DNA of 32,000 nt from NCBI GenBank assembly GCA_025839675.1, contig CP104013.1, positions 1,350,001 to 1,382,000 of the forward strand, written 5' to 3'. Under the pieces are notes generated by a model. The model was given only the letters and a program-made list of their open reading frames with translations, was not told the DNA's origin and searched no databases. A program made the translations under genes and the position numbers. This stretch comes from Candidatus Lokiarchaeum ossiferum. Lineage in GTDB: Archaea > Asgardarchaeota > Lokiarchaeia > Sigyniarchaeales > Promethearchaeaceae. This document shows positions 893-27,657 of this stretch, piece after piece (the first letter of the stretch is position 1; each line of letters starts with the position of its first letter).

Positions 893-3787
893 TCATTTTC
901 GCTTTTTCTTATAAATTATAGAAGCACCTACCACACCTATTAGAACAAGCAGCAGATCAATTGGTCCAAGGGGGGAGGAATCTTCTTCAATATGAAATGT
1001 ATCACTAATTCCAATGCTTTCCCCATATATATTTACTGCAACAATTTTGTAGTAATAATTCATATGAGGGACCAAATCACCGTCGTCGGTGAATTGCGTA
1101 ATCGTACTCGTTCCAATAATTTCATATGGGATATTTTCATCACTCGAATATTCAGCCGTATTATTTGCACGGTAAATATTATAATAAAGAATAGGAGCAC
1201 TTCCATTTGATAATGGTGCATTCCATTCAAGGATGTTATAAGGTACTCCATCAGCAAAATTTGATTCGATCCGCAATCCAGTCGGTGCTGAAGGAGTTTC
1301 CTTCAGTCGAGCACTCACTTGGTTGGATTTCTCACTTTCTCCAATAATATTGATTGCTTTCACTACATAAAAATAAATATATCCTTGAGTAACATTTTCA
1401 TCGATATATGAAGTAGTATTAGTATTTACAATTGCAATATAATCGGTTCCATTAGTGGTAGAACGATATACGGTATAGTTAAAGATCGGTTCCCCTCCAT
1501 TTGTTGAAGAAATATTCCAATAAAGTTGCACTTCAACAATATTTGTTATTGCTTGCAAATTTAATGGTTTAGAAGGCACTGTTGCGAATAAAGCCGGAAT
1601 TCCACTCACTTCATTTGATTGAGGGCCAACCGCATAGTTATTGACTGCAACCACATAATAATAATAGGTGATATTGTTTGTTACCGTCGTATCATTATAC
1701 TCTTCTGAAAAACTCGTTCCGATTTGAGTATAGGATGTGGTATCATTCGTGGAACGATAAATTTCATAGTGAATAATAGGACCAGTTCCAGTGAGCGCGG
1801 GAGCGTCCCATTGTAATTCTATTGTACAATTACTTGGTGTAGTTTGTAAATTTTGAGGCGCAGAAGGAGCGATTATGACGAAGATTGCACTCACTTCATT
1901 TGATTGAGGGCTAGCCGCATAATTATTGACTGCAACCACATAATAATAATAGGTGATATTGTTTGTTACCGTCGTATCATTATACTCTTCTGAAAAACTC
2001 GTTCCGATTTGAGTATAGGCTGTGGTATTATTCGTGGAACGATATATCTCATAATATTTAATTATACTTGCTCCACTGAGCGTTGGAACTTCCCATTGTA
2101 AACCTACCGTGCAATTACTTGGTGTGGCCTGCAAATTTTGAGGCGAAGAAGGACCATAACTTGCATAGGGAGTTGCATTGACTATTGAAGAACCTAAACT
2201 TTCATCATAATCATTGTATGTAGTAACATAATAATAGTAAGTAGTTCCATTCTCTACACTGGTATCATTATAATAAAATTCGTCATAATAAGAAAGACCG
2301 AGAAAATATTCCGGAAATCCTGTGGTGCTCCTTGTAGATCTATAGATATAAAAATATGTTAAGCCCCATGAAGAAGAACCATTACTTAATGGAGCATCCC
2401 ATTCAAGAAAAACAAACCCTAATCCTGCTTTGGCTGTAATATTTTCTGGAGGTGTTGCTTTGTTTAACACCGATGTATTGTTACTCTCTGCAATAGAGGA
2501 CGTGTTACTTTCTCCAATGGAGTTTACGGCAGTAATATAATAATAATAAGTTGTTCCATTTTCAATTTCAATATCAAAATACCGGAGCATAGTATTGTAT
2601 CCAATATACGAGAAACTCTCATTATCTTCAGAACGATAAATTCGATATTCATTGATGAGGGCTCCTCCATTTGAAACTGGTTTGTCCCAGGTTAGTTGGA
2701 TATAATCATCAGCATCCAAATAATCTTTTCCCGTTGATATCGATGGATTTAATGGGGCAGTAGGTACTGTTGACTGATTGACAGGAATTGCACTTGCGTT
2801 GTTTGAAAATTCACTTTCACCTGCAATACTAGCTGCAGAAACCTTGTAATAATATTCGTGTCCATTCGTTAGATTGACATCAATAGCATTCATACTTGAT
2901 GTATTGAATTGGTAACTAAATGAACCTCCAACATTAGTTGTACGGTAGATATTATACCACAATATTGTACTTCCATTATTCAAAATTGGTGACTCCCAAT
3001 GTAGTGCTACTGATTCATTCCCAGGGGTTGCTTGGAGGTTTGAAGGAAGTGAAGGAACTCCAATAGGGATCGCAGATACTATATTAGATTGATTACTCTC
3101 CTGGAATGTAAATATGGAAACATAATAAAAATATTCTGTCCCACACACCACATCATTATCTTGATAAGACAACTCCCAATTATATGCAGAATCAATAAAT
3201 GTAAAGATAGAATCATTCGTTAACGATCGGTAGATATTGTAGGAAGATTGAGGAAAAGCCGAAGCACCAGATGGAGCAGTCCAATTTAACTGGACATAGC
3301 CAATTTCCCCAGAAGCAGTGAGATTTTGTGGAGGTAGCATTGCAAGTGAGACAGCAGAAACAATATTGGAGGATTCAGACTCTTGCTCTTCCCAAGAAGG
3401 ATCGATTATCACAATACCTGCTGTAACAAAATAAAAGTATTCTATCCCAGGATCGCCAGTAAAATCTTGATAAGACAACTCCATACTAGATAGAGAAGTA
3501 ATAAATGTAAAGCTAGAATCATTCGTTATCGATCGGTAGATATTATATGACTCGACATTAATATTTACCCCAAACTCAGAAGCAGTCCAATTTAACTGGA
3601 CATAGCCAATTTCTCCAGAAGCAGTGAGATTTTGAGGTGGAGTATAAAAATTATCATCGATCGGCTCAGCTGAATCGAATATTTGTTGTTTTTCGAGTTT
3701 ATTCGTTGTTTCGGACTCAGAAAATGAGATTATTAGTCCAAAAAGATTTACCAAAATGATAAAGTAGATGACTTGTTTTGTTTTCAA
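893..3787 (-). CDS. Large secreted or cell-surface glycoprotein with nine fibronectin type III-like domains, an N-terminal signal peptide and a C-terminal TM anchor with a basic tail
   Basis: 964-aa ORF. The N-terminus MKTKQVIYFIILVNLFGLIISFS is signal-like. There are nine repeats of the pattern P-x-N-L-x-A...L-x-W-x-x-P...Y-x-(I/V)-Y-R-(S/T)...Y-Y-Y-x-V-x-A-x-N-x-x-G-E-S. I count more than 30 N-x-S/T sequons by eye. The C-terminus is EEDSSPLGPIDLLLVLIGVVGASIIYKKKRK (short motif, hydrophobic helix, Lys/Arg cluster). Confidence 0.9.
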   Translation of the reverse strand: MKTKQVIYFIILVNLFGLIISFSESETTNKLEKQQIFDSAEPIDDNFYTPPQNLTASGEIGYVQLNWTASEFGVNINVESYNIYRSITNDSSFTFITSLSSMELSYQDFTGDPGIEYFYFVTAGIVIIDPSWEEQESESSNIVSAVSLAMLPPQNLTASGEIGYVQLNWTAPSGASAFPQSSYNIYRSLTNDSIFTFIDSAYNWELSYQDNDVVCGTEYFYYVSIFTFQESNQSNIVSAIPIGVPSLPSNLQATPGNESVALHWESPILNNGSTILWYNIYRTTNVGGSFSYQFNTSSMNAIDVNLTNGHEYYYKVSAASIAGESEFSNNASAIPVNQSTVPTAPLNPSISTGKDYLDADDYIQLTWDKPVSNGGALINEYRIYRSEDNESFSYIGYNTMLRYFDIEIENGTTYYYYITAVNSIGESNTSSIAESNNTSVLNKATPPENITAKAGLGFVFLEWDAPLSNGSSSWGLTYFYIYRSTRSTTGFPEYFLGLSYYDEFYYNDTSVENGTTYYYYVTTYNDYDESLGSSIVNATPYASYGPSSPQNLQATPSNCTVGLQWEVPTLSGASIIKYYEIYRSTNNTTAYTQIGTSFSEEYNDTTVTNNITYYYYVVAVNNYAASPQSNEVSAIFVIIAPSAPQNLQTTPSNCTIELQWDAPALTGTGPIIHYEIYRSTNDTTSYTQIGTSFSEEYNDTTVTNNITYYYYVVAVNNYAVGPQSNEVSGIPALFATVPSKPLNLQAITNIVEVQLYWNISSTNGGEPIFNYTVYRSTTNGTDYIAIVNTNTTSYIDENVTQGYIYFYVVKAINIIGESEKSNQVSARLKETPSAPTGLRIESNFADGVPYNILEWNAPLSNGSAPILYYNIYRANNTAEYSSDENIPYEIIGTSTITQFTDDGDLVPHMNYYYKIVAVNIYGESIGISDTFHIEEDSSPLGPIDLLLVLIGVVGASIIYKKKRK
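1603..2172. repeat. Intragenic tandem duplication, 2 x 285 bp (one FN3 module each), nearly identical at nucleotide level over the module core
   Basis: The string cactcacttcatttgattgaggg... starts at 1603 and again at 1888 (offset 285 = 95 codons). About 140 bp following each start are almost base-for-base identical. The protein copies are PSSPQNLQATPSNCTVGLQWE... and PSAPQNLQTTPSNCTIELQWD... Confidence 0.9.
3194..3641. repeat. Second intragenic duplication, period 306 bp, covering the first two FN3 modules
   Basis: aataaatgtaaag(a/c)tagaatcattcgtta(a/t)cgatcggtagatatt occurs at about 3194 and about 3500. cagtccaatttaactggacatagccaatttc(c/t)ccagaagcagtgagattttg occurs at 3277 and 3583 (offset 306). 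Protein: PPQNLTASGEIGYVQLNWTA...YNIYRS(I/L)TNDS appears twice. Confidence 0.85.
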
Positions 3788-4409: not shown

Positions 4410-5180
4410 ATGAAAAAATTCCTTAGAAGGGATGTAAATATGGCCTCAAGAGAAGAAAATGATCTCCCAAAACAAAATATAATAGATCCCAACATTCCTG
4501 TTGCCTATTCATTGATTTCTTTACCCCTAATTTATCTTATTGGATATTTTCTCTTTAATTTTCCTCCTTTTAATATATTTTTCGTACTTTTACAAAATCT
4601 TACCACGTATTCTGTTGCAATATTATCAAAGATATCTTTAATGCCCGAAGTACAAATAATTCATTCTTTTAATTCAATATTGACTGTTTCAGCTTCTGAC
4701 CCTGCTTTATTCTATGAAAATATTAACTGGCTGTTTTCAATCAACAAATGGTGCACTGCAATGAATATTGGGGTGTATATCATCGCGCTGGTATTAGTTA
4801 CACCAATTTTTCATAAAAGACAAGAATCTCATCCCTTAATTCAATCATTAGTCGGAAAAAAGGAATTATTTCTCAAATTAAAGGCTATATCTTTGATGTT
4901 ACTTCTTCTTTTTATCTTAAACTCTATTAGAGTCTGGTTATTTCTTTATTTATTCGTGATGTATGATATTCCCAAAGAAATCTCCCATGATCTGATTTAT
5001 AAACCTGTTATCTTTTCACTGGGAATTTTTTTTGTAGCAATGTTTCAGAAACTCGGAATTGATATAGCAGAGTTGATTTTATCTTGGTTTAAATCGATGC
5101 TCTTTATTGTTCAATCAGGAAGAGATTTTATCTTGCAGAAGTTTCAAAACAAAAAACCCTCTCGAGATGAAAAAAACTGA
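4410..5180 (+). CDS. Polytopic membrane protein, putative exosortase/archaeosortase-family transpeptidase
   Basis: 256 aa with about 6-7 predicted TM helices. Three motifs occur in the order expected for the exosortase/archaeosortase domain as I recall it (A-C-S-G-I-R ... A-N-G-L-R ... D-H-L-I-Y-G-W-x-F-F). They are INKW-C115-TAMNIG, LFIL-N171-SI-R174-VWLF and EIS-H193-DLIYKPVIF. The gene is divergent from the FN3 protein, which carries a tripartite C-terminal signal. An alternative start is Met11 (4440). Confidence 0.55.
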   Translation: MKKFLRRDVNMASREENDLPKQNIIDPNIPVAYSLISLPLIYLIGYFLFNFPPFNIFFVLLQNLTTYSVAILSKISLMPEVQIIHSFNSILTVSASDPALFYENINWLFSINKWCTAMNIGVYIIALVLVTPIFHKRQESHPLIQSLVGKKELFLKLKAISLMLLLLFILNSIRVWLFLYLFVMYDIPKEISHDLIYKPVIFSLGIFFVAMFQKLGIDIAELILSWFKSMLFIVQSGRDFILQKFQNKKPSRDEKN

Positions 5181-5188
5181 CTAAATAC

Positions 5189-5584
5189 TTGAAGCTATTG
5201 GGTGTAAGCATAGTAATTTGGATCACGCCATATTTTTGGGGACTGATTGTCCCATTAGATGTAGAGTTTCATCCGTTGATCTTACTTTATGAAATAAATG
5301 ATGGTTATTATGTCAGTCTAATATTGCTATTAGCATTATATCTAATCTTGACCCATGATCTCCAAGAAATCATGTTGAAAGAGTGTTTATTGGAAGGATT
5401 GGTGATAATGTGTCTTCAAATTACTTTTGACATCATATTTATGATTATTTTTCCTCCTCTCCCTTCACAGAAAATTCTTCTGTTTGTGGGAATCTCTCAT
5501 CTTTTGATCCCTTTTTGGCTCCTAATGTTTTATTGGATAATACAGAAAAAAAACGAACTATTCACAAAAAAAGATCATACTTGA
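5189..5584 (+). CDS. Small integral membrane protein of unknown function
   Basis: 131 aa with about 4 hydrophobic helices. The TTG start lies 9 nt after the stop of the upstream archaeosortase-like gene on the same strand, and there is no in-frame ATG for about 60 codons. The coding call rests on ORF length and TM-like composition only. Confidence 0.45.
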   Translation: MKLLGVSIVIWITPYFWGLIVPLDVEFHPLILLYEINDGYYVSLILLLALYLILTHDLQEIMLKECLLEGLVIMCLQITFDIIFMIIFPPLPSQKILLFVGISHLLIPFWLLMFYWIIQKKNELFTKKDHT

Positions 5585-19875: not shown

Positions 19876-21915
19876 ATGGTTGCTCTCTCAAATCAAAGAT
19901 GTTTAGTAATTCTAATCCTTTTTACTTCTATATTCATCAATCCAATTTACACAACTTCAGCTTTAAGTTCATTACAAGCAGAAACAATCAAAATTGGTGT
20001 TGATCGGGAGGCAGCTCCAATGGAATTTGAAGAACAAGGTCAACCCATGGGATTTAATATAGATATATTTGATCAAGTTTCAGCAAGTTGGGAAACTCAA
20101 AATCAATATTTATTCATGGAATGGCCAGATGTTTTGGATTCTGTGAATAATGGCAGTTTAGATGCAATGTTTGCCATAAAAACCGAAGAAAGGAGAGAAA
20201 TCTATGATTTTAGTGATCCTTTTCTAAATATATCATGGCGAATTTTTATTAGAGAAGAGCAACCTAAATTGAATTCAATCACAGATTTAGAAAACCACAC
20301 TGTGGCGGTCATTAAAAATTTCGCTGCTGATCAGTATTTGCAAAGTTTAAGTTTTCATTTCCATATTATTGAAGTAGAAGATACTGAAGAAGGATTGTCT
20401 TTACTATCAAAAGGAGAAGTATATGCATACTTTGGAAATTATCATTTGGGATTGTATTATGTTCAGCAAGAAGAGTTTAATAATATCATTCCAACAGGCG
20501 AAGAAATGGCAAAGCAAGAGATGTGCATTGCTGTCAAGAAAGGGAATTCTGAACTTTTATCAAAAATAAACATTGGACTTCAATTGTTATTTGAAAGTGG
20601 AAATTATACTCAACTCTACAATTCATGGTTCGGAGGTGATGTGCTTCCCGAAATAAACCCAACAATCATTCAAATAACATCAATTGTTATTGGAGGTTTA
20701 TTTGTGGTATTGATACTACTCGCAGCATGGAATTTCGCGTTAACTAAAAAAATTGAGGAAAAAACAGAGGATTTAAAGAAAACTAACAGATTATTGATGA
20801 GACAAGATAAAATCGAATCCATTGGAGTTTTAGCAGGAGGTATCGCTCATGATTTCAATAATTTCTTAACCTCTATTTTAGGAAATATTTCTTTAGCTAA
20901 ACTTGAGATTGGGGCAAGTAACAAAGATCTTTTTGAAATTCTTCAAGAAGCGGAGAACGCTTCAATAAATGCAAAAGATTTAACCCAACAACTACTCACT
21001 TTTTCAAAAGGAGGAAAACCAATAAAAAAAGTTATAAATATCGCCCCAATCATTCAGCGTTCAAGTGTTTTTGCGCTCCATGGAACGGATATTTCACTGT
21101 CGCTTGATATTGCTGAAGATATTTGGCCAGTTAGCGTAGATGAAGGGCAAATCACACAAGTAATTAATAATATTGTTATTAATGCCAAACAAGCTATGGA
21201 AAAAGGTGGAAAAATAAAAATCACAGCTCAAAATAAGGAAGAACCCGTCATTTCTCAGACATTATCCCCAAAAAAGAAATATATTGAAATAAAAATACAA
21301 GATCAAGGTATTGGAATCCCAGAAAGAAATATTACAAAAATATTTGACCCCTATTTTACTACAAAACCAACTGGAAATGGTTTAGGGCTTTCTATTTGTT
21401 ACAACATTATCAAAAATCACAACGGGGAGATTCTGGTTCAATCTGCGCAGATGAAAGGAACGACGTTTACGATTTATCTCCCCGCATCTGATAAACCAAT
21501 TGAAAATTTGAAGAATACAGAAGGAAAATTAATCAAAGGTTGCGGAAAAATAATAGTTATGGATGATCAACGCGGTATCCGAACTTTGTTAAAACTAATG
21601 CTAACTAAATTGGGTTTTGAAGTAGAAACATCTAGCGATGGAGAAGATGCAATTCAAAGATTTGAAAAATCAAAGTTGGAATCAAGTGGACTTCCAATTC
21701 TAATCTTAGATATCACTATTCCAGGGGGTATGGGAGGTATTGAAACACTAAAAATTTTAAAAAAAACAAATCCCAAGATTAAAGCAATTATCTCCAGTGG
21801 CTATTCTAATATAGCAGTAATGAGTGATTATAAAAAATACGGTTTCTTGGGTGTGCTCCCTAAACCCTTTTCTTTGATGGAATTAAGCAATTTATTGAAA
21901 GAAATTCTCGAATAA
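19876..21915 (+). CDS. Hybrid sensor histidine kinase: signal/TM, extracellular solute-binding (SBP family 3) domain, TM, HisKA, HATPase_c, receiver
   Basis: IKIGVDREAAPMEFEEQGQPMGFNIDIF...LDAMFAIKTEERREIYDFSDPF is the amino-acid-binding SBP_bac_3 pattern. The TM helix is IVIGGLFVVLILLAAWNFAL. The H-box is GGIAHDFNNFLTSILGN, and the N/G boxes are NAKQAM, DQGIGIP and GNGLGLSICYNII. The receiver is IIVMDDQRGIR...ILDITIPGGMGG...PKPF. Confidence 0.9.
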   Translation: MVALSNQRCLVILILFTSIFINPIYTTSALSSLQAETIKIGVDREAAPMEFEEQGQPMGFNIDIFDQVSASWETQNQYLFMEWPDVLDSVNNGSLDAMFAIKTEERREIYDFSDPFLNISWRIFIREEQPKLNSITDLENHTVAVIKNFAADQYLQSLSFHFHIIEVEDTEEGLSLLSKGEVYAYFGNYHLGLYYVQQEEFNNIIPTGEEMAKQEMCIAVKKGNSELLSKINIGLQLLFESGNYTQLYNSWFGGDVLPEINPTIIQITSIVIGGLFVVLILLAAWNFALTKKIEEKTEDLKKTNRLLMRQDKIESIGVLAGGIAHDFNNFLTSILGNISLAKLEIGASNKDLFEILQEAENASINAKDLTQQLLTFSKGGKPIKKVINIAPIIQRSSVFALHGTDISLSLDIAEDIWPVSVDEGQITQVINNIVINAKQAMEKGGKIKITAQNKEEPVISQTLSPKKKYIEIKIQDQGIGIPERNITKIFDPYFTTKPTGNGLGLSICYNIIKNHNGEILVQSAQMKGTTFTIYLPASDKPIENLKNTEGKLIKGCGKIIVMDDQRGIRTLLKLMLTKLGFEVETSSDGEDAIQRFEKSKLESSGLPILILDITIPGGMGGIETLKILKKTNPKIKAIISSGYSNIAVMSDYKKYGFLGVLPKPFSLMELSNLLKEILE

Positions 21916-21957
21916 ACAAAATTGTTAATGGAAAAACTATAATTCATTTGAGATTCA

Positions 21958-21967
21958 TTTTTTAAAA
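21958..21967 (+). promoter_or_regulatory. TATA-like box (TTTTTTAAAA) about 26 nt upstream of ATG 21988
   Basis: The position fits an archaeal leaderless promoter for the Met at 21988. The element overlaps the upstream in-frame ATG at 21967, which argues for 21988 as the true start. Confidence 0.35.
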
Positions 21968-21987
21968 TGGTTTTTATTTGGTCATAT

Positions 21988-22494
21988 ATGATTCGAGATA
22001 TCTTAGTGATTAGCAAAGCAGGTTTACCATTAGTAGCACTCAACTTTGGAAATTGTCACAGTTTTAAATCGAATCCATCAGAATTTGCAGGTTTGATCTC
22101 AATTATACAGCAGTATTGCAAAACTTTCACAGGTCAAGAAATCAACATTGTTGAAATGAATAAATTGAAAATCGGCTTTTATTCCAAAAGAGACTTGCAG
22201 TTTTGCATTATTTTTGATGTTGAAGATGATTCTACTAGCGCATTAAACAAAATTGAGATGATAGCTAAATTATTTATGACGTATTACGACGTTCAACTAA
22301 AAAATTTCAATGGAAATATCAATTTATTCAAAGATTTCGGAGATTTACTGATAACATCAAATATTGCGCAAAAAAATTGTGGAAATCGTGATGATTGCGT
22401 AGATTGTCCAAATAATGATAAAAATCTTGAAATTACAGAAATCCTTTCGATAAATAAAGCAAAGAAAATTTTCCATTCTTTAATTGATGTTTAA
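21988..22494 (+). CDS. Longin / sigma-adaptin (clathrin-adaptor small chain)-like domain protein with a Cys-containing C-terminal extension
   Basis: MIRDILVISKAGLPLVALNF...NIVEMNKLKIGFYSKRDLQFCIIFDVEDDSTSALNKIEMIAKLFMTYY aligns by eye with AP sigma subunits as I recall them (MIRFILIQNRAGKTRLAKWY...[48 protein letters not shown]). The C-terminal tail contains C-x6-C-x2-C. The ORF track starts at ATG 21967. Confidence 0.45.
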   Translation: MIRDILVISKAGLPLVALNFGNCHSFKSNPSEFAGLISIIQQYCKTFTGQEINIVEMNKLKIGFYSKRDLQFCIIFDVEDDSTSALNKIEMIAKLFMTYYDVQLKNFNGNINLFKDFGDLLITSNIAQKNCGNRDDCVDCPNNDKNLEITEILSINKAKKIFHSLIDV

Positions 22495-22522: not shown

Positions 22523-22530
22523 TTTTTTTT
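22523..22530 (+). terminator. T8 tract 29 nt after the longin-like gene stop
   Basis: The tract reads ctggtttttttta. Confidence 0.4.
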
Positions 22531-22644
22531 AAATTCAACTTATGAACTGAAAGTTTTTTAGTAAATATGTTGATGAATTATTCGTTGTAATGTACGAACG
22601 GATTCGGATGAACATTGAATAACACACATCATCTTACTAAAGTT

Positions 22645-23805
22645 ATGGATATAACCACTCAAAAACCAAATGAAAAACGTGAATTTTTAAAAAAACTCAT
22701 TTTAGAACTTCACGAAACTGAAAATATGGATAAAGTGAAGAAACAATTTAAGTCAAAGTTTTCAGATGTTGATTCAACAGAAATCGCATCTATGGAACAA
22801 GAGTTAATCGAAAATGGAGAACTTACTGCAGAACAAGTAACAAAACTATGTAATGTTCATGTGGAAGTTTTTAAGGATGAATTAAATAACCAAAAAAGTG
22901 CAGAATTAATTCCAGGTCATCCGATTCATACGTATCGCGAAGAAAATAAGATTGCTTTAGATCTGGTTAGAGATTTACGAAAAGCAGTTAAACCACTCAA
23001 AATGATTAAACTCTCAAAAATTACCTCCCATTATACCCGACTTGAAAATCAACTATTTCCGATTCTTGAAAAAGTCGGATTTTCCGGACCATCCCAAGTA
23101 ATGTGGGCAAAACATGATGAAGTACGGAGGATGATCAATGATAAAAAGAAAGAGGAATTTCCCGCTTTACTTGATGAAATTGAGGGTCTTGTGTTTAAGG
23201 AAGAAAAAATACTCTTTCCCACGGCTCTTGAAAAACTCACAGAAGAGCAATGGATTGCAGTAAAACGGGGTGAAGAAGAAATAGGATTTGCATGGATAAA
23301 ACCTGGCACCCAATGGAATCCTGTCACACCAGAGCAAATTCATATAGGGAAAAATGAATCGAAAACTCCAATATCTAGGATGATAAGCAAGATTATTGAT
23401 TTAAGTACTGGAAAACTGGATCTTGAAGTGCTCGATCTCATTTTAACAATGCTTCCTGTCGATATTTCCGTTGTGAATGAAAAAGATGAAGTAATTTATT
23501 ATTCAAATAATCCAGATCGTGTCTTCCCCCGAAGTCCAGGTGTGATTGGGCGAAATGTCAAAAATTGTCATCCTCCCAAAAGCCAACATATCGTTAAACG
23601 AATCTTAGATGCCTTTAAAAACGGAAGCCAAAATACTGCTGAATTCTGGCTGGAGTTAGGAGGACAATTTATCTATATCCAATATTTTGCGATTCGAGAT
23701 TCCATGGGAAAATTCAGAGGGACTCTAGAGGTAACCCAAGATGTTACAAAAATTCGAGGATTGAAGGGAACCCAACGGTTATTAAATTGGAATGAACAAC
23801 ACTAA
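22645..23805 (+). CDS. DUF438 - hemerythrin-like - PAS-like domain protein (putative O2/NO/iron-responsive sensor)
   Basis: REFLKKLILELHETENMDKVKKQFKSKFSDVDSTEIASMEQELIENGELTAEQVTKLCNVHVEVF is the DUF438 pattern. GHPIHTYREENK is a hemerythrin HHE-like region. The C-terminus DISVVNEKDEVIYYSNNPDRVFPRSPGVIGRNVKNCHPPKSQHIVKRILDAFKNGSQNTAEFWLELGGQFIYIQYFAIRD matches the conserved PAS-like module of this family. The first ATG is 22645 (TTG 22615 in the track). Confidence 0.85.
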   Translation: MDITTQKPNEKREFLKKLILELHETENMDKVKKQFKSKFSDVDSTEIASMEQELIENGELTAEQVTKLCNVHVEVFKDELNNQKSAELIPGHPIHTYREENKIALDLVRDLRKAVKPLKMIKLSKITSHYTRLENQLFPILEKVGFSGPSQVMWAKHDEVRRMINDKKKEEFPALLDEIEGLVFKEEKILFPTALEKLTEEQWIAVKRGEEEIGFAWIKPGTQWNPVTPEQIHIGKNESKTPISRMISKIIDLSTGKLDLEVLDLILTMLPVDISVVNEKDEVIYYSNNPDRVFPRSPGVIGRNVKNCHPPKSQHIVKRILDAFKNGSQNTAEFWLELGGQFIYIQYFAIRDSMGKFRGTLEVTQDVTKIRGLKGTQRLLNWNEQH

Positions 23806-26325: not shown

Positions 26326-27657
26326 ATGACTAAACGCATTTTATCCATCGATATTCTTCGTGGGTTTGGGATTATTTTTGTAGTTCTACTTCATGCTTTA
26401 GCCTTCCGAATATTTGGGCAAGATCGCAGTCAAATTCAACAAATTTGGGAAACAACTCCCCCAATCTTAATCATCTTAGCATTGCCATTTGTAATTATTA
26501 CATTATGGGGATCAGTATTCACATTTCTTGGTGGTGTCTCAGTCACTTATTCAATTATTCAAACTGAAAATCGAAATAGTGAAGACGTGCCCAACAAGAT
26601 TCAACATCATTTAGTAAGGAGTCTAATTATTTTGGTGCTTCAATATGTTTTCCTTGCCTTGTTTTCAAACCAAATTTCGGGAAATACATCCCAAATAACG
26701 CACTCACTAATCACGGGATTTTTTGAAACATTGAGTTTCGATACACCCAGTTTCTTGCACTATTTTACCGCAGGAACTTTAGAGGCCATTGCTGCAGGAA
26801 ATATTGTGGTTTCTTTAATTTTATATTTACAATGGAAACGCAATAAGCTCACTAATTTCTCTCACACTTCCAGACGATTTATCATGATTGGGCTAATAAT
26901 TATAATATTCACATTTATAGCTTTTGAAATTATAGGAGATCAAGCAGCCAACATATCATTACTTCAGCAAAATGAAAAATGGGGTCAACTATTGCTCTTT
27001 ATCAAAATTTTTGCTGGAAGATATAGTTTATTCCCCACGCTATCCTATGCAATGTTTGGAGCGGTATTTGGGTATGCTATCGCTAGTAATCAATCCTATA
27101 ACGAAATCAAGAAGTATGGTTTTATTATCGGGGGTATATTTATAGGAATTTTCATGATCTCTCTTCTTCGCGGATTTAATTACATTAAAGACCTCGCAGG
27201 TGAAAATTTACCGCTAAATGTGTATTTGTTTAATCTAGGAGGACAAATGGTCACTTTTACCGCTTTACTCAAAATTGATTATAGTTCACCAAAGAAACGA
27301 GAAATTCATAAAAAACGAGCAAGAATTTTCTTACTTTTCGGAAATTTAACACTCACAATATATTTCTTTGAAGGTATAAATTCAATTCTTTTATATCGAA
27401 TATTTGCCAGCATCTTTTCAATCAATTTTGTGTCGAATGCATGGCTTGTCTTTTTATATGAAAATATGATATTTTTGATTTGGGTAATAATATTGACTTT
27501 ATGGGGTAAATTAAAATTCAATTTCACTATTGAATATTGGATTGGCCTAATCGAGAATAAAGTTAGAAAACTCTTCAATCAAAGATATGTACAAGAAAAC
27601 GAACCCGAATTAGGTGTTTTTAGTGAAATTAAGAACCCAATAATTGTATTAAAATAG
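26326..27657 (+). CDS. DUF1624 / HGSNAT-like membrane acyltransferase, short paralog
   Basis: MTKRILSIDILRGFGIIFVVLLHAL has the same N-terminal signature as the 5679-7412 gene. The protein is 443 aa and polytopic. An AGGGAG purine tract lies about 10 nt before the ATG. Confidence 0.7.
   Translation: MTKRILSIDILRGFGIIFVVLLHALAFRIFGQDRSQIQQIWETTPPILIILALPFVIITLWGSVFTFLGGVSVTYSIIQTENRNSEDVPNKIQHHLVRSLIILVLQYVFLALFSNQISGNTSQITHSLITGFFETLSFDTPSFLHYFTAGTLEAIAAGNIVVSLILYLQWKRNKLTNFSHTSRRFIMIGLIIIIFTFIAFEIIGDQAANISLLQQNEKWGQLLLFIKIFAGRYSLFPTLSYAMFGAVFGYAIASNQSYNEIKKYGFIIGGIFIGIFMISLLRGFNYIKDLAGENLPLNVYLFNLGGQMVTFTALLKIDYSSPKKREIHKKRARIFLLFGNLTLTIYFFEGINSILLYRIFASIFSINFVSNAWLVFLYENMIFLIWVIILTLWGKLKFNFTIEYWIGLIENKVRKLFNQRYVQENEPELGVFSEIKNPIIVLK

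Follow-up and report, generated by a model that had tools for sequence, protein, structure and literature searches.

A longin-domain protein of Candidatus Lokiarchaeum ossiferum with four conserved cysteines, a probable metal site and a weak, clade-restricted likeness to sigma-adaptin

Introduction

Longin and Roadblock domains serve as regulation platforms for the membrane-traffic GTPases of eukaryotes, and both are abundant in Asgard archaea, where they have no known functions. Whether one of these archaeal proteins stands close to the small chains of vesicle-coat adaptors is the question raised by a small gene in a 32,000-nt stretch of DNA from Candidatus Lokiarchaeum ossiferum (GenBank assembly GCA_025839675.1, contig CP104013.1, positions 1,350,001 to 1,382,000, forward strand), which was analysed as a whole and is called the window here. 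The original prediction, made from the letters of the window, had described the gene product as resembling sigma-adaptin or zeta-COP small chains with an added Cys-rich tail, and as a possible lead to the origin of vesicle-coat adaptors. Our analysis identifies a longin-domain protein whose family extends across the Asgard archaea and conserves four cysteines; the protein's likeness to sigma-adaptin is weak and confined to one clade. We assign a probability of roughly 0.6 to the best overall explanation, by which the protein is no coat subunit but a metal-clasped longin platform that acts in small-GTPase or two-component signalling.

Longin and Roadblock-superfamily eukaryotic signature proteins (ESPs) of Asgard archaea were reportedly treated by Klinger et al. 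in 2016. The subject is by now well published, with 130 Asgard clusters of orthologous genes (asCOGs) devoted to these two domains (Liu et al., 10.1101/2020.10.19.343400) and 41 predicted longin domains in Loki (PMC10933270), and a preprint reports proteins annotated as 'mu/sigma subunit of AP complex' (IPR022775; AP, adaptor protein) in Balder- and Freyrarchaeota. With Asgard longins and sigma- or mu-like matches already in the literature, the protein described here is not a new kind of protein.

Results

Fold and family

An AlphaFold2 model (mb8fcca2a7250) built from 37 family sequences reached a predicted local distance difference test score (pLDDT) of 87 and a predicted template modelling score of 0.82. 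Its elements follow one another in the order beta1-beta2-alpha1-beta3-beta4-beta5-alpha2-alpha3, which is the longin topology, with strands at residues 2-9, 14-19, 54-57, 60-67 and 70-77 and helices at residues 30-48, 82-105 and 111-123. Foldseek returned 61 matches in the PDB at E<=1e-3, spread over sigma, zeta, delta and mu-N chains, Mon1-Ccz1, TRAPP Bet5, Sec22b, BLOC-3 and CPLANE (Fuzzy/Inturned), so that the significant structural matches come from several independent longin families, and members of the protein's own family also match longin Pfam profiles. As modelled, the product is a stand-alone longin-domain protein, and in this respect the fold proposed in the original prediction stands.

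A word-indexed search found four relatives only, and an exhaustive phmmer/HMMER scan of 1.84 billion representatives revealed the wider family, with 85 representatives at E<=1e-3 by phmmer and 41 at E<=1e-10. Between the window protein and the family members the E-values run from 1e-97 to 1e-10. Where a source is named, it is Ca. L. ossiferum or a member of the Thorarchaeota or Heimdallarchaeota; every such entry reads 'hypothetical protein', almost none carries a precomputed Pfam domain, and a search of the window protein against NCBIfam gave no meaningful match. The closest homologue, 93% identical, is a hypothetical protein of Ca. L. ossiferum, and the neighbourhood is collinear with CP163304.1 1,383,824-1,400,330. 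A genome scan with five close sequences located seven loci.

A typical member has about 160 aa and exactly four cysteines in total, placed in two motifs, F-G-E-C-H-S after beta2 and N-C-G-x4-C-x2-C-(P-N) after alpha3. The window protein carries both, as FGNCHS at residues 20-25 and NCGNRDDCVDC at residues 130-140. At the sequence level these proteins form an Asgard-wide family that extends across Loki-, Thor- and Heimdallarchaeota, is unannotated in databases and is here named the 4-Cys longins. Pfam places its members in no single longin family: among the 37 aligned sequences there are matches to Clat_adaptor_s (6), Fuz_longin_1 (5), Longin (3, the best at 4.5e-6) and Intu_longin_1 (1). The relatives within reach of phmmer fall into the same four families, P0070 passing the cut-off of Clat_adaptor_s (24.5 > 22.5 bits) and P0073 that of Intu_longin_1, while P0085 stays just short of the Fuz_longin_1 cut-off and P0051 matches Longin at E 4.5e-6.

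The cysteine site

That the C-terminal extension is rich in cysteines, as originally described, was borne out by the alignment. The spacing had been misread as C-x6-C-x2-C and is C-x5-C-x2-C (C131, C137, C140), and the beta2-alpha1 loop contains one more conserved cysteine, C23, just before H24, that had been missed. C131 and C140 are invariant in the 37 sequences and C137 is at least 90% conserved. All four cysteines are present in 39 full-length representatives; 13 family cases that seem to have the C-terminal three only are fragments truncated at the N-terminus, and in P0036 both C23 and C137 are gone. Six relatives in which the longin domain is fused to a GTPase (see below) keep the C-terminal triad invariantly and mostly lack C23, and all of them have a cysteine at the start of alpha2, at position 87 of the window protein. 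This residue looks like a relocated fourth ligand. In the longin sheet the strands are ordered 2-1-5-4-3, and the beta2-alpha1 and beta5-alpha2 loops leave at the same end; because they do so, the move of a ligand from one loop to the other is plausible.

Since the cysteines are conserved together, are lost jointly in P0036 and are apparently relocated in the fusions, we infer a single four-ligand site at which they probably hold a metal. In such an arrangement the chain would fold back past alpha3, so that C131, C137, C140 and C23, possibly with H24, could bind one metal centre, by which the C-terminal extension would be pinned to the end of the longin sheet. The metal is most likely a structural zinc; an iron-sulphur (Fe-S) cluster is possible, with a clearly smaller chance.

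Folliculin/Lst7 provides a precedent for a metal site in this setting, as a GTPase-regulating protein in which a split, putatively zinc-binding Cys/His module occurs with a longin domain (PMC3438538, PMC4703059). The combination of a longin domain with a split Cys/His metal motif is what the two proteins share. The pattern in Folliculin/Lst7 is HxCx2H...Cx2C at the N-terminus, whereas the window protein has C(H) in the beta2-alpha1 loop and C-x5-C-x2-C after alpha3; the DENN domain of Folliculin/Lst7, which is a GTPase-activating protein (GAP) for RagC/Gtr2, is absent from the window protein. Neither the window protein nor the family members matched the Folliculin Pfam profile at E<=1, and no FLCN chain was among the top 50 Foldseek matches. 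In the 182-aa relative P0070 a TRASH metal-binding domain (29.3 bits, cut-off 27) occupies the position of the Cys knuckle, after a longin core that passes Clat_adaptor_s, which also fits a metal site. A TRASH or folliculin-type zinc module was rejected for the window protein itself, which has another ligand pattern and no profile match, including none to TRASH (PF24273 / PF08394) in Pfam at E<=10. The Asgard longin literature that we searched makes no mention of the four-Cys site, the C-terminal knuckle or the version with the relocated ligand.

Similarity to sigma-adaptin

The comparison with the adaptor small chains had rested on a human AP2S1 sequence that proved correct, matching PDB chain 2jkr_I end to end (309.5 bits, 142 aa). 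The identities claimed for the two blocks, 8/20 at the N-terminus and 12/30 around the F-C-I-x-x-D-V-x-D core, were also recovered when counted on a BLASTP alignment, which contains 26/100 identities over residues 1-100 (pairwise E 7e-7). With phmmer the AP2S1 score was 16.1 bits, above chance, as the maximum in 1000 shuffles of AP2S1 was 10.2 bits. The L-x2-I-x6-F-x2-Y helix that had been called adaptin-like has almost no identities with sigma-2 once aligned and is a generic amphipathic helix.

Several searches nominated sigma as the nearest relative. Clat_adaptor_s was the only longin profile in Pfam to match the window protein (19.0 bits, E 0.0015), the top PDB sequence match was AP-2 sigma (E ~0.04-0.09), which was also the sole adaptor chain at E<10 in a PDB profile search, and the top nine Foldseek matches were AP-1 and AP-2 sigma chains (E 1e-6 to 2.5e-5). 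The Pfam score does not reach the gathering cut-off of 22.5 bits, however, and the match spans positions 1-94 of the 142 in the profile; the hhalign alignment likewise covers residues 1-100 only, leaving alpha3 and the C-terminus unaligned. The orthologues P0002 and P0003 scored 18.2 and 12.7 bits, and none of the 6/37 family members with a Clat_adaptor_s match at E<=1 scored above the window protein. The TM-scores from Foldseek do not discriminate, with 0.44-0.50 for sigma chains, 0.52 for Sec22b and 0.59 for BLOC-3.

Scored against paralogues, with reference sequences verified against the PDB, the window protein obtained 16.1 bits with AP2S1, 5.7 with AP1S1, 0.9 with AP3S1, -0.6 with COPZ1 and 3 with VAMP7 (phmmer). 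The resemblance is thus to sigma-2 and weakly to sigma-1, does not run through the adaptor small chains from sigma-1 to sigma-4 and zeta, and leaves nothing of the supposed likeness to zeta-COP.

The preference for sigma also depends on which members of the family are considered. A hidden Markov model (HMM) of the family scored AP2S1 at 17.0 and the VAMP7 longin domain at 15.2 bits, and when the five sequences of the Lokiarchaeum clade were taken out the order was reversed, with 16.1 bits for VAMP7 versus 10.9 for AP2S1. Profile comparison by hhalign, made with shallow reference profiles (4 and 3 sequences) that were confined to sigma/zeta and SNARE longins, TRAPP, SRX, Mon1/Ccz1 and NPRL lying outside the comparison, gave the whole family (37 sequences) a probability of 61% for sigma/zeta (E 8e-5) and 24% for SNARE longins. 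For the Lokiarchaeum clade by itself (5 sequences) the values were 84% (E 7.7e-6) and 1.6%, and for the remaining 32 sequences 17% and 27%. As judged from these sequences, the sigma-likeness is real but weak and is confined to one shallow Lokiarchaeum clade of a generically longin family.

In fold, in size, in an N-terminus of the form MIR-x-IL, in an 'A-G' turn after beta1 and in the F-C-I-x-x-D-V-x-D strand beta5 the window protein resembles AP sigma chains, which in contrast lack its Cys4 clasp and its tail. SNARE longins (VAMP7, Sec22b, Ykt6; PF13774) have the same fold; neither a SNARE motif nor a transmembrane anchor is present in the window protein.

Domain fusions

The strongest functional evidence came from domain fusions. 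Six relatives of 478-497 aa (P0034, P0055, P0058, P0065, P0082 and P0086) consist of a longin domain with the C-terminal cysteines, a Roadblock domain and a Ras-family GTPase (Pfam Ras, E 1e-20 to 1e-31). In an AlphaFold2 model of P0055 these occupy residues 1-125, 159-279 and 313-476, respectively. A further relative, P0077, joins a longin domain to Robl_LC7, and the distant relatives P0063, P0085 and P0088 carry winged-helix modules that are DUF742-like (E 2.6e-4 in P0063), TrmB-like and similar to the C-terminal helix-turn-helix (HTH) of NPRL3. The relative with the NPRL3 HTH-like module is similar in architecture to NPRL2/3, a case taken up for Asgard archaea by Liu et al. GTPase fusions of this kind occur in Asgard genomes, and longin/Roadblock dimers bind and regulate small GTPases as platforms (PMC10933270); many longin fusions to two-component signalling domains have been described as well (Liu et al., 10.1101/2020.10.19.343400).

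Gene structure and neighbourhood

The open reading frame (ORF), listed as 175 aa at 21967..22494, is a real gene whose start is probably Met 21988, as in the original prediction (Table 1). The four close homologues (4/4) and most of the wider family begin with MIR(D/N), the equivalent of Met 21988, and the product from there has 168 aa, as does the gene call in the Ca. L. ossiferum orthologue. Met 21988 is preferred because no homologue has an upstream extension, and ATG 21967 was ruled out as the start on the same ground.

Between the stop codon of the upstream kinase gene and the longin start lies a TATAAT-TCATTTGAGATTC block (21937-21957) that is kept in 4/4 orthologous loci and may be a promoter or regulatory element. 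The T8 run after the gene is shared with L. ossiferum and not with the more distant orthologous loci. Together, the conserved block and the T8 run suggest that the longin gene is its own transcription unit.

Table 1 Features of the 4-Cys longin gene and its product; positions are those of the window
Feature	Position	Strand	Evidence
Putative promoter of the longin gene itself: TATAAT-TCATTTGAGATTC, a conserved block, then TTTTTTAAAA	21937..21967	+	Kept in 4 orthologous loci; function suggested by position and conservation
In-frame upstream ATG and 7 codons, probably untranslated	21967..21987	+	Extension found in no homologue; overlaps AT-rich TTTTTTAAAA at 21958-21967
4-Cys longin coding sequence with its stop codon (168 aa)	21988..22494	+	ORF listing; conserved MIRD/MIRN start; 168-aa gene in Ca. 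L. ossiferum
Longin core, residues 1-123	21988..22356	+	AlphaFold2 pLDDT mostly 84-98; Foldseek probability 1.00 to many longin domains; hhalign and Pfam sigma alignments cover residues 1-100
C23-H24 in the beta2-alpha1 loop, proposed first metal ligand	22054..22059	+	C23 in 39 full-length representatives with the C-terminal triad; nearly invariant in the 37-sequence alignment
Cys knuckle, residues 131-141, N-C-G-x4-C-x2-C-P-N (C131, C137, C140)	22378..22410	+	Conservation in 37 sequences and six GTPase fusions
C-terminal tail, residues 147-168, short helices 149-152 and 155-162, end AKKIFHSLIDV	22426..22491	+	AlphaFold2 secondary structure, pLDDT 58-79
T8 run 29 nt past the stop codon, possible archaeal oligo-T terminator	22523..22530	+	Sequence; function suggested

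The tail of the window protein is weakly amphipathic (hydrophobic moment 0.64, z 1.3 versus shuffles, net charge 0). A subset of the family (P0012, P0008, P0045, P0024) has strongly basic amphipathic C-terminal helices, such as KFLSRIRKLFRKL, GFLSWLRKVFKK and SFLSRFKSFFFKK, which resemble membrane-targeting helices of the MinD/FtsA type. A membrane-targeting helix of this kind is convincing in that subset, whereas in the window protein it is weak and serves as a lead only.

The neighbours are those named in the original prediction. Upstream lies a gene for a SBP_bac_3-HisKA-HATPase_c-REC hybrid kinase (19876-21915) and downstream one for a DUF438-hemerythrin-PAS_10 protein (22615-23805). The order of kinase and longin genes is kept at the loci with 93, 73 and 59% identity. 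The hemerythrin gene is kept in Ca. L. ossiferum and on the contig with 59% identity and is missing from the one with 73% identity (L009), where a thioredoxin-like gene directly follows the longin gene. A sensor kinase flanks the family gene in the Loki and Heimdall lineages, that of a heimdallarchaeote (L014, 3710-6748, minus strand) being a divergently oriented PAS-GAF-PAS-HisKA-HATPase_c kinase of 1011 aa. As a functional guide the adjacency of kinases is suggestive at best. As had been noted for the window, no GTPase or adaptin-like gene lies in it, and neither these nor a Roadblock gene were found in the window or in about seven contexts of the family.

In Thorarchaeota (loci L004-L007, L015 and L016) the 4-Cys longin gene follows a conserved block of genes on the same strand, in which a gene for a protein of ~240 aa stands with one or two genes for ferritin/rubrerythrin-like proteins (150-157 aa) and with genes for unknown proteins of 116-126 aa and ~175 aa. 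The upstream genes of 116 aa and 176 aa are not longin paralogues (hhalign <1%) and had no Pfam match. L016 also encodes, at positions 1-2015 and some 5 kb upstream of its longin gene, the domains of a eukaryote-type topoisomerase IB (Topoisom_I_N, Topoisom_I, Topo_C_assoc).

Elsewhere in the window, a gene on the minus strand (893-3787) encodes a 964-aa protein, probably a surface protein, that has five fibronectin type III repeats and also matches the phage tip attachment protein J in its second Ig-like domain (E 1.7e-13). No Pfam match was obtained for three sizeable ORFs on the plus strand (26326-27657 and 4410-5584), of 443, 256 and 131 aa; the one of 443 aa adjoins a gene for a CitMHS-family transporter, and this pair is kept in Ca. 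L. ossiferum.

Discussion

By analogy with characterised longin and Roadblock domains, the 4-Cys longin of the window may dimerise with itself or with a Roadblock or longin partner, and the dimer could form a platform that binds or regulates a Ras-superfamily small GTPase encoded elsewhere, as a guanine nucleotide exchange factor, a GAP or an effector scaffold. The platform may belong to a pathway fed by two-component sensor kinases. For the step from longin domain to GTPase platform we see the chances as close to balanced. The proteins most similar in kind are the Asgard longin/Roadblock ESPs (Liu et al. 2020/21; Tran et al. 2024), which come from the same organisms, belong to the same fold class and likewise occur fused to Roadblock domains and Ras/Rag-like GTPases; the conserved four-Cys site with its knuckle sets the present family apart. 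According to Tran et al. 2024, the longin/Roadblock genes of MK-D1 generally do not lie in operons with GTPases, and the same holds here. A looser parallel is offered by the bacterial and archaeal MglB-MglA and conservon modules, in which a platform of the same superfamily is tied to small GTPases and sensor kinases. In Streptomyces the conservon CvnA-D comprises a kinase, a Roadblock protein, a DUF742 protein and a GTPase; on the longin side, P0063 has its DUF742-like winged helix and the Loki and Heimdall lineages have their adjacent kinases. The present case differs from these modules in having a longin instead of a Roadblock domain and no GTPase or DUF742 gene nearby, and the likeness is a functional analogy only.

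A number of points weigh against a metal-clasped platform for small GTPases. No GTPase or Roadblock gene adjoins the family in about seven independent genomic contexts; the fusions are found in paralogues and are no proof that the stand-alone protein has the same partner; and some longin domains, namely those of SNAREs and coat small chains, do not regulate GTPases. As to the clasp, the proximity of C23 to the C-terminal triad is deduced from co-conservation and the longin topology only, and the pLDDT of the model drops to 75-79 over the Cys segment.

If the protein were instead a true relative of the AP sigma or COPI zeta lineage, a proto-adaptor subunit packing on a large subunit with HEAT/ARM repeats, the sigma-likeness of the Lokiarchaeum clade would be a retained ancestral signal. 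Sigma is indeed the nominal best match in Pfam, in the PDB sequence search and among the top nine Foldseek matches; the clade profile favours sigma/zeta over SNARE longins by 84% to 1.6%; P0070 lies above the Clat_adaptor_s cut-off; and proteins with IPR022775 have been reported in a preprint from other Asgard phyla. Yet the Pfam score of the window protein falls below the cut-off and covers 94/142 profile positions, there is no similarity to sigma-3 (0.9 bits) or zeta-COP (-0.6 bits), and the preference for sigma disappears without the Lokiarchaeum clade, both in hhalign (17% vs 27%) and in the HMM scores (VAMP7 16.1 vs AP2S1 10.9 bits). The relatives are divided among four Pfam longin families, the window and the related loci lack adaptin-like, mu-homology and HEAT-repeat genes, and the partners seen in fusions are Roadblock, GTPase, TRASH and winged-helix modules, never a mu-homology domain. 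We therefore regard a proto-adaptor as improbable and attribute the likeness to sigma-2 to common longin ancestry together with residues peculiar to the Lokiarchaeum clade; on this view the protein is no clathrin or COPI small chain. A signal that is limited to one clade and lies below threshold cannot carry an argument on the origin of coat adaptors, on which the original prediction had expected it to bear. The closeness to adaptor small chains that it proposed is thereby not supported, its observation having been confirmed and its interpretation supported in part. The protein did not fall into Roadblock/LC7, an outcome that would have told against the prediction. A Roadblock (MglB-like) protein mistaken for a longin might be suspected from Roadblock structures among the Foldseek matches (E ~3e-4 to 7e-4), including the Asgard MK-D1 Roadblock 7yh1, and from a faint Robl_LC7 match in 1/37 family members (E 0.076). 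The model, however, with no N-terminal helix and two C-terminal helices, has the longin and not the Roadblock topology, on which we rejected this assignment; longin structures beat Roadblock structures by about two orders of magnitude in Foldseek, the canonical Roadblock domain of P0055 sits beside the longin domain as a distinct fold, and Pfam found no Robl_LC7 match in the window protein. This leaves the Roadblock alternative with hardly any probability.

The cysteines could also serve two-component signalling with no GTPase involved, the Cys4 site acting as an Fe-S or redox-labile zinc centre through which a redox- or metal-sensing accessory modulates the adjacent hybrid kinase, the hemerythrin-PAS sensor or both. 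This would fit the position of the longin gene 52-93 nt downstream of the same hybrid kinase at the three loci with 93, 73 and 59% identity, the PAS-GAF-PAS-HisKA-HATPase_c kinase that adjoins divergently in a heimdallarchaeote, and the redox-flavoured neighbours, which encode hemerythrin, thioredoxin-like and Fer4-nitroreductase proteins in the window and rubrerythrin/ferritin-like ones in the Thor block; like ferredoxin motifs, the Cys triad is closed by C-P, and Liu et al. found many longin fusions to two-component domains (10.1101/2020.10.19.343400). The synteny within Lokiarchaeum may, however, just mirror a short evolutionary distance, the sensor modules of the Loki and Heimdall kinases are unrelated, the P0002 contig lacks the hemerythrin gene, and no kinase is found in the Thor and four other contexts. 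Moreover, a conserved block upstream seems to belong to the longin gene itself, and as sensor kinases are numerous in Asgard genomes, two adjacencies in about seven contexts are only suggestive. We consider such an accessory role unlikely. More speculative still, and with a lower chance, is a role of the four-Cys site as a redox- or metal-responsive switch, with an Fe-S cluster or labile zinc, that clamps and releases the tail of a longin platform and so couples oxygen, redox or metal status, perhaps via the neighbouring kinase or hemerythrin sensor, to small-GTPase signalling. We know of no eukaryotic longin domain that is under redox or metal control of this kind.

The consequences are twofold. 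An apparently sigma-adaptin-like protein of Lokiarchaeum does not count as evidence that archaea have coat adaptors, since its sigma signal is below threshold and limited to one clade. The 4-Cys longins also define a tractable subfamily of Loki-, Thor- and Heimdallarchaeota, which probably has a metal clasp and in which Roadblock domains and Ras-like GTPases occur as natural fusion partners, and the 93%-identical orthologue of Ca. L. ossiferum makes metal content, dimerisation and GTPase binding directly testable. If the metal site turns out to be regulatory, it would represent a new way to control a longin platform.

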